32,000 nucleotides of DNA from Candidatus Saccharimonadota bacterium (GCA_001029695.1 CP011211.1:420001-452000), one strand, 5' to 3'; shown: positions 3-3,679, numbered from the stretch's first letter. Numbers and translations are program-made. The notes: a model not told the origin generated them from the letters alone.

Positions 3-752
3 CAGGGTTTCACTATCGTCGAGCTGATTGTCGTAATATCAGTACTATCGATACTTATCGGCCTCATAGCGACAACGCTCCTAAATTTCTACCTATCAAA
101 TATAGCCACGATCAACCGTACGACGCAGGCAAATGACGTCGCAAGCACGCTACAATCGATAGAAAAAAATGTATCGCTTGCGAGTAACTTCCTCAGCAAG
201 ACATCTAGTTCGGCACTTGCAACACCACTTGGTCCAGAAAACTCTGCGATGCCTTGGATCTTCAAGACAGGTGAGCCGAACTACAACGTATTGATTGTCC
301 AGAACTACGCAACAGATGGTACATCGAGCGACACAGCTCGGAAACTCATCTATTCATCTCCTGATTGTAAGTCGGATCCTGTCAAGAATACTCTGATCTA
401 CTTCGTTGACACTTCTAGTACATTATATCGCCGCACTATCAGCGGACCCCCCTCTGTCTGCGGCGGCGCAATATCTCAAAAAACAACTTGCGCTCCAACA
501 GCGACCTCATCACCACTATGTATCGGTGTAGACGCTGTCCTTTCCAGGAACGTATCAAAATTTCAGATACACTATTTTGCCAATAGCTCAGACCAGACAC
601 CCGTGGACCCATACTCACAATCAGAGGTAACAGCCGCAGACACCATAAGAAACGCCAAAGCAATAAACATAACACTAGAGACATCCGAAAACATAAACGG
701 TAAACTGAATAAGTACGCAAGTACTTTGCGGATTACAAGGTTGAACGAATGA
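3..752 (+). CDS. Type IV pilin-like protein (minor pilin/pseudopilin), 5' end cut by window edge
   Basis: Frame 3 is open from base 3. Translation begins QGFTIVELIVVISVLSILIGLIATTLL, which is the prepilin G|FTxxE motif plus a hydrophobic helix. Four Cys lie in the globular part. Stop TGA 750-752 overlaps the next ATG (ATGA). Confidence 0.8.
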   Translation, partial: QGFTIVELIVVISVLSILIGLIATTLLNFYLSNIATINRTTQANDVASTLQSIEKNVSLASNFLSKTSSSALATPLGPENSAMPWIFKTGEPNYNVLIVQNYATDGTSSDTARKLIYSSPDCKSDPVKNTLIYFVDTSSTLYRRTISGPPSVCGGAISQKTTCAPTATSSPLCIGVDAVLSRNVSKFQIHYFANSSDQTPVDPYSQSEVTAADTIRNAKAINITLETSENINGKLNKYASTLRITRLNE

Positions 753-3679
753 GACTATATACCATACTTCAAAAGAACATTGACAGGCACGAACCTAGTC
801 GTGGCTTTATATTGCCTGTCGCCATCGTACTATCCTTGGCTATAATGACCGTAAGTATCACTGCGCTCCAGCTCATCAGCCAAGCTAGCGCACGACAAAG
901 TGAGGCCTACGCTCAGACACTTGCCGCCGAAGCGTCTCAAGCAGGGATCAAACATGCAAATGCTTGTATCGAACGAGGGGTGGCAACATGGGCTACCCCG
1001 CTCAAACCAGGACTTGATTGCAGCGGCACTCCGTCAGGCGCCCCCGACACCCTAACGACTCTTCGTGACTGGACTACCAGCTACAGTGTCACAATTAGCG
1101 GAGGAACCATAAACTCCGTGGGAATTGTAAACAGAGTACGAAGCGACGGCATTTCGATAGTAAGTACTATCGATAAACAGCTCAAGTCAGACACCGTAAC
1201 CGGAAGCTCATCGGTAGCCGTTGCTGCGCCCGACCCTAATCGACAATTTAGCTCTATAGGCGCAGGCTTTGAACATACCTGCGCTGTTTCGAGTGGAAAA
1301 GTATTTTGCTGGGGACAGAACAACGTAGGCCAGCTCGGTATCGGCATCACTGGAGGTACCTATACTACACCACAAGAAGTAAAAGGCGGACTGCTTGGCA
1401 AACGAGTCACCAGCATTGCACTCGGCTCTAATCATACCTGTGCTCTCGCGGAAACCATACCTCAAACAAGTACAAATGAGGTGTGGTGCTGGGGGCTTAA
1501 TACATACAGCGGCCTCGGCTCCAACGGCACCACTAATCAAAATGAACCGAGACGTGCACTTGGAGATATTAGTGGTAAACGCGTCATGAAAATCGCACTC
1601 GGCACAGGAGTCGAAGGCAATAACGCGTGCGCCATAACAGACGAGTCAGCCGATGCAGGCACGCGCGTAGCTCGAAATCTATACTGCTGGGGAAAGAATG
1701 GACAGGGACAACTAAGCACAAACAGCATCACCACTTTTGCAACCCCTAAGCGCTCCACTGACTATGCTCAATTGAATAGAAGCTTCGTAGATATAGCGAT
1801 GGGCAATAGCCACGCTTGCGGCATTCTAGCAAATGGAGACATGTACTGTTGGGGCGCAAATAGACCGTCAGGCGGTAGCGGTCTATTTGGGACGTTCGGC
1901 ATAGGCAAGGAAGACGACGATCCAAAGTACTCTACTATAACCTGGCGATACCCCCGACAGGCTATAGATACAAGTGAATTTGCATTTGGTAGCAACTTCG
2001 CAACAAAAGTGACTGCAGGGGCAAACAATACATGCGTTATCTCTGCAGGATCAATCTACTGTTGGGGTGACACCTGGAACACCTATCGACCCGATCGCTT
2101 AGCGACGAGCCTCGATGGCCCAGCAAATCGAGCTGCCGTTGACATAGACTTCGATGGCAATACCGGCTGCGCGACATACGAAGGTGGCGCCACTCGATGC
2201 TGGGGACAAAATACAGTCAGCGGTAGCACGGATGCAGGGATGCTCGGCACAAACTCTTCCACCTCCTGGGTTCCTCAGCCAAATATCGTCAGCTCACCTC
2301 TTAGAGATAAGGAAACAATCCAAACATCGGTCGGTCAGAACCACGTGTGCTCCATTACAAAAGAAGGTGAAGCATACTGCTGGGGTGCAAACAATGCTGG
2401 ACAGATGGGTACAGGCGATTACAATTCATCTCGAGTTCCCGTCGCAGTAGCACAGACAGTTGGATTAAACTCAGGTGACTCAACGATGGTAGCCACCAAA
2501 GTAGCTGCAGGTTACGACCATACTTGCGCTATTATAGAAGCGCAAGTCTACTGCTGGGGTGCAAACAATGACGGACAGCTCGGTAACGTAAGTACTACGT
2601 ATCAGACCAAGCCACTTCTAGTAGCAGCTATAGCTGACAAAAAATTCACCAAAGTCACCTCCGGTAACTACTTTAGCTGCGCAGTAAGTACGACCAATGA
2701 AGTATACTGCTGGGGAAAGAACACAAAGGGTCAGCTCGGCCGTGGTGGCGCACCATCCCAAAAAGAACTACCCGCCCCCATGATTCTCCCGGCAGACACG
2801 GTCGGAGTGAGAGATATTAGCGCAGGAACTGAACATGCCTGTGCAGTCTTCCTAAACCAAGACGAAGCGGCATGGTGTTGGGGCGACAACAGCACTCGAC
2901 AGCTTGGCGACAATTCATCGGTATTAAGTAGTAGTACTCCAGTTCAAGTCTGTGCAGATAGCGTCTGCTTCAGTCGAAGCTACGCTATCGCAAGCGTATC
3001 GGCAGGCAGTAGCTATAGCTGCCTTGCTTCTGCGAACCAAGCATCAAACAACACGTATTGCTGGGGACAAAATAATTCTACAGGAAGATTAGGAATAAAC
3101 AACTCTTCAATGAACTTCTATTTACCTACTCGAGTGCAAGGACATATGGGAGGGGTGAAGGCGATAAAGGTAGTCGCTGGCCCAAATAGCGCATGCGCAA
3201 TATCGATTACGGGCACGCCTGCTCATATTAACGCCTGCTGGGGCGCAAACAACTACAGTCAACTTGCGACTGGAGATTCAGCGACAAAGCTCACCTCTAC
3301 TGCCACCACAGCACCCATACTTAATAGCTCATATACGGTTGACACGAGCGTCGGGACAGATCACGCCTGTTCTATCCTTAGTTCAGGCGCCCTCTATTGC
3401 TGGGGTGCAGGATATTATGGACAACTTGGTCTCGGCGACACCTCAAATGCCAGTCCGACACGAGTCAACACACCATCGGGTGATTTTACCGCTACAAATC
3501 TTTCAGCGGGCGATCGACATACCTGCGCAATATCAAAGGGGTTGATCTATTGTTGGGGCGCTGGGCAGAATGGACGGCTCGGTGTAGGAAGCCTATCCCA
3601 GCAAAACTCACCCACCCAGATCACCGAATACATCAAAAGCCTCGGAGAGTCTTCGACACCTGGCACTATTATTTATTAG
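749..3679 (+). CDS. RCC1-repeat (two 7-bladed propellers) protein with pilin/PilX_N-like N-terminal helix
   Basis: 976-aa ORF. The N-terminus RGFILPVAIVLSLAIMTVSITALQLISQASARQSE resembles a minor-pilin/PilX-type hydrophobic segment (G-F present, no Glu5). It is followed by 14 copies of the RCC1 blade signature [YWF/x]CWG.N..GQLG alternating with xHxCA[VIL]. Start and stop overlap (ATGA) with the upstream pilin gene. Confidence 0.8.
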   Translation: MRLYTILQKNIDRHEPSRGFILPVAIVLSLAIMTVSITALQLISQASARQSEAYAQTLAAEASQAGIKHANACIERGVATWATPLKPGLDCSGTPSGAPDTLTTLRDWTTSYSVTISGGTINSVGIVNRVRSDGISIVSTIDKQLKSDTVTGSSSVAVAAPDPNRQFSSIGAGFEHTCAVSSGKVFCWGQNNVGQLGIGITGGTYTTPQEVKGGLLGKRVTSIALGSNHTCALAETIPQTSTNEVWCWGLNTYSGLGSNGTTNQNEPRRALGDISGKRVMKIALGTGVEGNNACAITDESADAGTRVARNLYCWGKNGQGQLSTNSITTFATPKRSTDYAQLNRSFVDIAMGNSHACGILANGDMYCWGANRPSGGSGLFGTFGIGKEDDDPKYSTITWRYPRQAIDTSEFAFGSNFATKVTAGANNTCVISAGSIYCWGDTWNTYRPDRLATSLDGPANRAAVDIDFDGNTGCATYEGGATRCWGQNTVSGSTDAGMLGTNSSTSWVPQPNIVSSPLRDKETIQTSVGQNHVCSITKEGEAYCWGANNAGQMGTGDYNSSRVPVAVAQTVGLNSGDSTMVATKVAAGYDHTCAIIEAQVYCWGANNDGQLGNVSTTYQTKPLLVAAIADKKFTKVTSGNYFSCAVSTTNEVYCWGKNTKGQLGRGGAPSQKELPAPMILPADTVGVRDISAGTEHACAVFLNQDEAAWCWGDNSTRQLGDNSSVLSSSTPVQVCADSVCFSRSYAIASVSAGSSYSCLASANQASNNTYCWGQNNSTGRLGINNSSMNFYLPTRVQGHMGGVKAIKVVAGPNSACAISITGTPAHINACWGANNYSQLATGDSATKLTSTATTAPILNSSYTVDTSVGTDHACSILSSGALYCWGAGYYGQLGLGDTSNASPTRVNTPSGDFTATNLSAGDRHTCAISKGLIYCWGAGQNGRLGVGSLSQQNSPTQITEYIKSLGESSTPGTIIY

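Follow-up and report, generated by a model that had tools for sequence, protein, structure and literature searches.

A two-propeller relative of PilX2 in a minor-pilin operon of Saccharibacteria

What might a protein named 'chromosome condensation regulator RCC1' be doing when its gene directly follows genes for canonical prepilins? The question is raised by a 32,000-nucleotide stretch of DNA from Candidatus Saccharimonadota bacterium (GCA_001029695.1 CP011211.1:420001-452000), analysed here at its full length and referred to as the window, in which an open reading frame (ORF) at 749..3679 on the plus strand encodes a protein of 976 amino acids (aa) that carries this product name in GenBank. 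An earlier reading of the locus, made from the sequence alone, had proposed that the protein consists of two propellers carried on a pilin-like stalk and serves as a pilus-displayed adhesin for host recognition, and had known of no characterised fusion between RCC1 repeats and a pilin. On the latter point it is superseded, since PilX2 of the oral Saccharibacterium TM7x is exactly such a fusion (PMC12206443, PMC13194787). The window protein is a two-propeller relative of this known protein, and it represents no new kind of system or mechanism.

Relation to PilX2 of TM7x

In Nanosynbacter lyticus TM7x, the minor pilin PilX2 (TM7x_02980) bears one RCC1 propeller of seven blades, and its gene belongs, with pilA2, pilW2, pilV2 and pilZ2, to the third type IV pilus (T4P) locus of that organism (Grossman et al., ISME J 2025, PMC12206443). 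Deletion of pilX2 lowered host binding from 10.6% to 4.6%, an effect like that of deleting pilA2, pilB2 or pilC2, and abolished competitive fitness; in the authors' proposal PilX2 acts as adhesin for the thin T4P-2 pilus, similar in function to PilY1 (PMC12206443). More recently PilX2 has been termed a 'putative tip-associated adhesin', its purified propeller (P159 to the end) has been found to bind TLR2, and epithelial binding has been found to be lost in the pilX2 deletion (Nat Commun 2026, PMC13194787).

The operon to which the window gene belongs begins to the left of the window. The pilW2-like minor pilin gene at 1..752 (plus strand) has its 5' end cut by the window edge, and its translated frame contains a prepilin start, ...QG/FTIVELIVV (slashes mark putative cleavage sites), with matches to the N_methyl and TIGR02532 models of Pfam and NCBIfam. 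On the full contig (L002, 9225-10004) the same gene encodes 259 aa, NRSQG/FTIVE, and is itself preceded by a second canonical pilin gene, which is PilV-like (L002, 8738-9244; 168 aa, SSG/FTVVE), so that the order on public contigs is 168-aa pilin, 259-aa pilin, RCC1 protein. As the sequence-only reading had pointed out, the ATG of the RCC1 gene overlaps the stop codon of its upstream prepilin neighbour in the four bases ATGA (749..752, plus strand), an arrangement that suggests translational coupling of the pilW-like and pilX-like genes. Downstream there follow in order a tRNA-Arg(TCG) gene detected by ARAGORN (3730..3806, plus strand), murB, a further pilin gene (5048..5512, plus strand), glyA on the minus strand, and a gene for an EPSP-synthase-like protein fused to a helix-turn-helix (HTH) domain. 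The product of 5048..5512, a protein of 154 aa beginning KG/FTIVELLIV, was rightly taken for a pilin from the outset: it matches N_methyl (1.3e-07) as well as models of GspG/PilA type and resembles the major pilin PilA2. A promoter and terminator scan covering 3400-5700 of the window found nothing.

Sixteen public contigs encode a protein identical to that of the window, which also appears in GenBank as AKM80331.1 and HBH77744.1 (Candidatus Saccharibacteria bacterium), in agreement with the lineage that had been guessed from the sequence. In three further entries (OGL23713.1, OGL33885.1 and MBH1955982.1; 944 aa, 99.7% identical) the same gene is made to begin at Met33 (window position 845); so shortened, the protein lacks its leader and half its hydrophobic helix, and nothing in these annotations betrays its pilin-like nature.

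The PilX2 ORF was located by searching species-representative genomes with the published primer PilX2_Up_F, which led to a TM7x-like Saccharibacteria contig (L010). The genome-specific parts of two other primers, PilX2_Up_R and PilX2_Dwn_F, flank exactly the ORF at 711-2462 of this contig, whose product has 583 aa, seven CWG motifs and the N-terminus KDG/YSLVL...YYYKLAQEAGEAGTAYANAC...PLRPETDCLG. The full-length window protein aligns colinearly with it, from the G/F(Y) site onwards and through one propeller (E=4e-40), and the N-terminal modules (N-modules) alone are 34% identical (E=3e-13). The pilW-like gene of the window is homologous to the gene upstream of the L010 ORF, in the position of pilW2 (E=6e-7), and the pilin encoded at 5048-5512 is 36% identical to that downstream of it, in the position of pilA2 (E=2e-12). 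The pilW-like and pilX genes of L010 likewise overlap by 4 bp (714/711), and both loci continue with glyA on the minus strand and the HTH-EPSP synthase gene, giving the shared order pilW-like, RCC1 pilX, pilA-like, glyA, HTH-EPSP synthase. Homology of three pilin-type proteins combined with this synteny argues that the window gene is by position the orthologue of pilX2 and encodes one propeller more; judged by sequence, ORF 749-3679 very probably encodes a PilX2 orthologue.

The features that mark a protein as PilX2-like were found in the window protein, namely homology of the N-module, a lollipop-shaped N-terminus joined to an RCC1 propeller, and a gene placed after genes of pilV2/pilW2 type and beside one of pilA2 type. 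The two proteins also have in common a Gly followed by Phe or Tyr at the putative cleavage site, the lack of Glu at +5, the motifs QYY..LA.EAG.AG..C and PL.P..DC.G, the RCC1 class of propeller, and the lack of any match to a pilin hidden Markov model (HMM) or of a predicted PilD signal. They differ most obviously in architecture, the 976 aa of the window protein comprising two propellers with 14 blades in all whereas PilX2 has a single propeller of seven blades in ~576 aa (TM7x) or 583 aa (L010), and their overall identity is only ~27%. At the window locus, unlike that of PilX2, a tRNA-Arg gene and murB separate pilX from pilA. The organisms differ too: the window comes from an environmental Saccharibacterium (one of the syntenic contigs derives from a metagenome-assembled genome), whereas PilX2 has been studied in the oral TM7x. 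Host binding through a T4P-2 filament is for the window protein a candidate function, carried over by analogy with PilX2 of TM7x.

Fourteen RCC1 blades and the N-module that carries them

Translation and a motif count gave a protein of 976 aa with exactly 14 xCWG motifs, both as read at first sight; the motifs lie at residues 187-935 and are spaced ~46-71 residues apart. Three Pfam families match the protein, WD40_RLD (E=2.6e-114), RCC1 (E=3.5e-96, in 11 stretches) and RCC1_2 (E=9.2e-66, in 12 stretches). A full-length AlphaFold2 (AF2) model based on 37 homologues, with a predicted local distance difference test (pLDDT) score of 80.8, comprises a helix at 22-75, a sheet at 103-148 and then an uninterrupted series of four-stranded blades, with notable troughs of confidence (pLDDT <50) at 150-154 and 574-578. 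Since the latter of these lies between the seventh and eighth CWG motifs, the blades divide 7+7: propeller 1, with blades 1-7, is predicted at 1226..2467 (plus strand, aa ~160-573, seven CWG motifs at 187-544), and propeller 2, with blades 8-14, at 2483..3640 (plus strand, aa ~579-964, seven CWG motifs at 602-935). In a Foldseek search of the PDB the top matches were to the closed seven-bladed propeller of UVR8, with template-modelling scores of 0.87-0.91 normalised to the target over ~384 columns, and the next were to RPGR, HERC2 and RCC1. Pfam and Foldseek thus agree on the hallmark of the RLD superfamily, a seven-bladed propeller made of RCC1 repeats. Together with the AF2 model they argue for two seven-bladed RCC1 propellers, as the sequence-only reading had supposed; arrangements of the 14 blades other than 7+7 were considered and are disfavoured by the low-confidence linker at 574-578 and by the UVR8 match. 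Propeller 2 shows ~30% identity to propeller 1 (E=1.4e-41) and 28% identity to the propeller of PilX2. Pfam found no PilY1/PilC domain (PF05567) in the 976-aa protein.

The protein contains 32 cysteines, with Cys73 and Cys91 located in the head of the N-module and two in each blade, one in a ..HxC.. strand and one in the ..YCWG strand; these are invariant or nearly so among 37 homologues. So regular a pattern suggests one disulfide per blade and an extracellular protein. The GenBank name would instead imply an intracellular, RCC1-like regulator. Such a role would accord with that name and with the likeness of fold to eukaryotic RCC1, UVR8 and HERC2, and with these only; it is contradicted by the N-terminal transmembrane helix of the AF2 model, by the paired cysteines of the blades, which are typical of secreted repeats, and by the location of the gene in a pilin operon, an orthologue moreover giving a surface-binding phenotype (PMC12206443, PMC13194787). 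We consider it effectively refuted.

The window protein begins MRLYTILQKNIDRHEPSRG/FILPVAIVLSLAIMTVSITALQ. Its leader (aa 1-19; 749..805, plus strand) ends with Gly19 and would be removed at a putative prepilin-peptidase site G/F (SRG19/F20ILPV). A long α-helix follows (aa 20-75; 806..973, plus strand), spanning residues 22-75 in the full AF2 model and 12-66 in that of the N-domain, with a hydrophobic first half and, in the second half, a conserved QYY..LA.EAA.AG...C motif. Beyond the helix lies a small β-sheet head (aa 76-150; 974..1198, plus strand; AF2 strands at 103-148; invariant Cys73/Cys91). A second motif, PL.P.TDC.G, comes after the first, and the Cys of both is invariant in the family alignment. 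The AF2 model of the N-module, based on 43 sequences, reaches a pLDDT of 90.7 and has a 55-residue helix packed on a three-stranded sheet, the 'lollipop' topology of pilins. With canonical pilins the protein shares a Gly in position -1 and a hydrophobic helix whose first residue is Phe, but it lacks both their Glu at +5, as already remarked from the sequence, the residue there being Val, and a match to the N_methyl model. A suspected resemblance to ComGG (a GF..P motif) was dropped, the N-terminus having no match to ComG in NCBIfam.

The family to which the N-module belongs was defined by an exhaustive phmmer search of 1.84 billion representative proteins, which yielded 414 homologues at E<=0.001, 28 of them at <=1e-10. 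Among the best 150 of the 414 the match lay at the N-terminus of the protein in all but one, and the lengths ranged from 98 to 1126 aa. A word-indexed protein search returned no match to the N-domain alone and two to its profile; the index apparently cannot seed the N-module. The signature around the putative cleavage site was counted in the 143 of 147 family representatives in which the motif could be located. Position -1 held Gly in 135 of them and Ala in the remaining 8; Phe or Tyr occupied +1; Leu at +3 and Pro at +4 were nearly invariant; and at +5 there was Thr, Val, Ala or Ser, and Glu in none. In the window protein the corresponding G19, L22 and P23 are among the residues (nearly) invariant in family alignments.

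When propellers were classed by the number of blade signatures (CWG), 44 of the 147 representatives had 4-8 and were counted as single-propeller proteins, 21 (~14%) had 9-15 and were counted as double, and 74 had none. A scan of ten long members in which CWG was absent or nearly so showed RCC1-like propellers in nine, seven of these having a ricin-type lectin as well. The Ricin-B lectin is placed between RCC1 stretches (P0131, P0163, P0184, P0193, P0204, P0208 and P0223, one of which has a single CWG and the rest none), and P0209 has a glycine-rich domain instead. The N-module thus nearly always serves to carry RCC1 propellers, to which a carbohydrate-binding part is frequently added, and the lectin-bearing propellers of these relatives fit a role in adhesion or binding.

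Fusions of RCC1 repeats to a canonical N_methyl segment were observed on contigs of other lineages, in P0041, P0043, P0049, P0059 and P0060 (e.g. KNLG/FTIIELLVV and RRG/FTLSEVVIV), so RCC1 propellers are also joined to true pilins with class III signals. At the one such locus examined (L009, 5001-7751) the fusion is an orphan gene.

Proposed display on a pilus and the alternatives

We propose that the protein is a PilX2-type, pilin-like stalk without Glu at +5 that displays RCC1 propellers at the pilus tip for host capture, and give this mechanism as a whole a probability of roughly 0.7. The hydrophobic helix would insert in the membrane and prepilin peptidase would probably cut after the conserved Gly19. 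The protein would then form a priming complex with the PilV-like and PilW-like subunits, and this complex would end up at the tip of the pilus because a subunit without Glu at +5 can only be the topmost one, as has been argued for GspK/PilX. Exposed at the distal end of a thin filament of T4P-2 type, the propellers would be a receptor-binding module by which the host bacterium is captured at long range; the second of them may provide a second binding site or extra reach, and replacement of the whole pilV-pilW-pilX cassette at the level of strains would tune specificity. As for the original proposal of a pilus-displayed host-recognition adhesin made with minor pilins, structure prediction, the operon, and homology and synteny with PilX2 all favour it; its tip location and PilD cleavage are what we infer, and the indirect character of the tip location in every member of the family counts among the points that weigh against the proposal.

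The other such points concern the N-terminus, the gene content of the window, PilX2 itself and some distant relatives. Residues 1-166 match no Pfam or NCBIfam model, including N_methyl, TIGR02532, PilX_N, GspK and ComG, even at E<=10. A profile of the N-module found no solved pilin among PDB sequences, a spurious P-type ATPase at E=2.9 being its only match, and Foldseek with the N-domain model likewise found no pilin in the PDB, the best E being 0.27; this last result is likely due to the 55-residue helix and three-stranded sheet being a poor query and to solved pilins being mostly truncated at the N-terminus. The sequence-only reading had described the N-terminus as of PilX_N type, and had offered the lack of any pilin or PilX_N similarity as grounds for giving up its proposal; in the formal sense of a Pfam match to PilX_N or N_methyl, that similarity is lacking. 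PilX_N was matched by two of 43 family N-domains, a count that no other Pfam family exceeded (best E=0.0033, below the trusted threshold, and tied with two unrelated families), and one family member bears the label 'Tfp pilus assembly protein PilX' at JGI. We use 'pilin-like' on grounds of topology, motif logic and context, and not of a database match. The window holds no pilus machinery and no prepilin peptidase. For PilX2, too, no PilD signal was predicted and no HMM match appears in the supplementary table, and the pilX2 deletion still makes thin pili, so that PilX2 is not required for assembly (PMC12206443).

Neighbourhoods in the family are of two sorts. Two canonical pilin genes lie directly upstream in the window, in the TM7x-like contig L010 and at the loci of P0004 and P0003. 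Three distant double-propeller relatives have no adjacent pilin genes, and these too weigh against the proposed mechanism: P0037 (L012, 5001-7835) and P0086 (L013, 5001-7901) lie beside glutaredoxin and ATP-synthase genes, and P0078 forms a tandem pair with a second member of the family, following a vWA protein. Since P0037 and P0086 share the same non-pilin neighbourhood in different assemblies, they point to a second, conserved paralogous lineage that is unlinked to pilins. Linkage to pilin genes is thus found among close relatives and fails for these three; it characterises the clade orthologous to pilX2, not the family at large, which cautions against generalising, although pilin genes are often found scattered.

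Much of this evidence also suits a different explanation, in which the protein is a membrane-anchored surface adhesin with an uncleaved, Sec-type signal anchor, never enters a pilus, and is linked to pilins by co-regulation only. It would account for an N-terminus that neither pilin HMMs nor Foldseek recognise, for distant relatives encoded away from pilin genes, and, in TM7x, for the lack of a predicted PilD signal in PilX2 and the persistence of thin pili without it (PMC12206443). What a plain anchor would not need is a Gly conserved directly before the hydrophobic stretch in 135 of 143 sequences, nor a conserved module of ~150 aa that combines helix and sheet and has an invariant pair of cysteines. 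Gly at -1 is the single strict requirement of prepilin peptidases, and nothing would favour its retention in a plain signal anchor. Nor does co-regulation sit easily with the 4-bp overlap with the pilW-like gene, seen at the window locus and at the TM7x-like one alike, or with the pilX2 deletion, whose effect on host binding phenocopies loss of the filament (pilA2, pilB2, pilC2; PMC12206443). We judge the signal anchor unlikely.

Comparison with better-known systems bears on what the protein would do at a pilus tip. Like subunits of GspK/PilX type (PilX_N, PF14341), it has a pilin-like helix without Glu at +5, is encoded last in a minor-pilin operon and is larger than the other minor pilins; the family differs from them in its conserved Pro at +4, the window protein in lacking a PilX_N match, and its globular part, a small sheet followed by RCC1 propellers, has no counterpart of the α-domain insertion of GspK. 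In the GspK-GspI-GspJ and PilVWX complexes the subunits of GspK/PilX type cap the filament. PilY1/PilC of the type IVa pili of Pseudomonas, Neisseria and Myxococcus is, as here, a large propeller protein encoded with minor pilins, proposed to lie at the tip and to bind host receptors. The window protein is not homologous to it and its propellers are RCC1-like, so it may work like PilY1 without being a member of that family; moreover PilY1 is no pilin and docks onto minor pilins, whereas the propellers of the window protein are fused directly to the pilin-like module. A binding domain grafted onto a pilin module is also the plan of the modular type IV pilins PilB (vWA module) and PilC (lectin module) of Streptococcus sanguinis, which have canonical class III signal peptides with Glu at +5 and grafted domains other than RCC1.

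The likeness to PilY1 allows a further alternative, that the protein is a priming or regulatory factor controlling the initiation, number or length of pili, with some other component binding the receptor. Against it, thin pili are assembled without PilX2 (PMC12206443), and the isolated PilX2 propeller binds a receptor protein in vitro (PMC13194787). Lectin inserts in relatives also speak for binding, and the cassette containing the gene is hypervariable among near-identical strains, the pattern to be expected if it determines specificity and not if it serves assembly. A priming factor of this kind strikes us as very unlikely, and we retain display of the propellers at the pilus tip as the preferred explanation.

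A strain-variable cassette and its surroundings

Variation of the locus between strains is seen on comparing the window with a contig (L006) that is nearly identical to it on either side of the pilin genes. Identities between flanking proteins are 99% for ThiF, 99% for the acyl-homoserine-lactone (AHL)-synthase-like protein, 100% for the response regulator, 99% for FolD and 97% for MurB, and the DNA of the left flank is 96% identical over 3.6 kb. Within the cassette the identities are 52% for the pilV-like, 45% for the pilW-like and 39% for the pilX-like products. Nucleotide identity breaks off shortly before pilV and is regained at the tRNA-Arg gene, the right-hand boundary of the variable pilV-pilW-pilX block. 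L006 carries in addition a second cassette, comprising pilX' (738 aa), pilV' and pilW'.

A third contig, L014 (GCA_001790385.1 MGCL01000002.1, 1784-10208), proved on comparison with window 1-4034 and L006 7267-11657 to be a mosaic. It has, in order, a cassette of window type (98%), tRNA-Arg, ~100 bp of murB, a 3' remnant of an L006-type pilX, the second cassette and a second tRNA-Arg. The remnant covers the final 165 codons of this alternative form of pilX, with 96% protein identity to residues 821-985 of P0004. The arrangement looks like the result of recombination at a tRNA-bounded hot spot; either it is that or it is an assembly chimera, these genomes being metagenome assemblies.

We tentatively raise the possibility, which for the moment seems to us rather doubtful, that pilV-pilW-pilX is a swappable host-specificity cassette whose number differs (one or two). 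Were this so, the exchange of entire pilus-tip complexes at a tRNA-bounded hot spot would let Saccharibacteria shift or widen the range of their hosts, and the double propeller would be a bivalent receptor binder.

Other genes of the locus deserve mention. A homologue of LuxI-type autoinducer synthases (Autoind_synth, PF00765) is encoded ~3.4 kb to the left of the window start (L002, 5842-6594) and is also present on L001 and L006; its neighbours are ThiF, two histidine kinases and a response regulator, and the pilin cassette begins a short way downstream. An AHL synthase in a Saccharibacterium would be unexpected. Within the window, the HTH-EPSP gene at 6941-8470 (plus strand) encodes 509 aa in which an HTH_3 domain (Cro/C1-type) is fused to an enolpyruvyl transferase of EPSP-synthase/MurA type, and the same fusion occupies the same position in the TM7x-like contig (L010, 4363-5886). 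Between ~11000 and 20000 the GC content of the window is 0.37-0.44, against 0.45-0.53 elsewhere, and five ORFs in this region (12142-12750, 12942-13580, 13812-14231, 14717-15652 and 16571-17017) have no Pfam match; on another contig (L003) a 548-aa large serine recombinase stands in place of the window's ATP-grasp gene. The region at ~11000-20000 is possibly variable or mobile. Genes for cell-wall synthesis are abundant along this stretch of the genome: besides murB and the gene of MurA type there are, at 27810-29800, MurT (a Mur ligase with a MurT_C domain) and, after it and overlapping it, a 240-aa ORF that is presumably the GatD partner.

Little is settled about the way in which ultrasmall episymbionts locate and select host cells, and PilX2 is at present the best candidate for a recognition molecule. 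It has been studied in a single oral strain, and the present locus adds a two-propeller form from environmental Saccharibacteria, together with a large family whose recognisable N-terminal signature is missed by standard pilin HMMs and deleted by some GenBank starts. That signature offers a handle for a proper HMM of PilX2-type proteins, and the wholesale replacement of cassettes between near-identical strains offers one for predicting host specificity from genomes.

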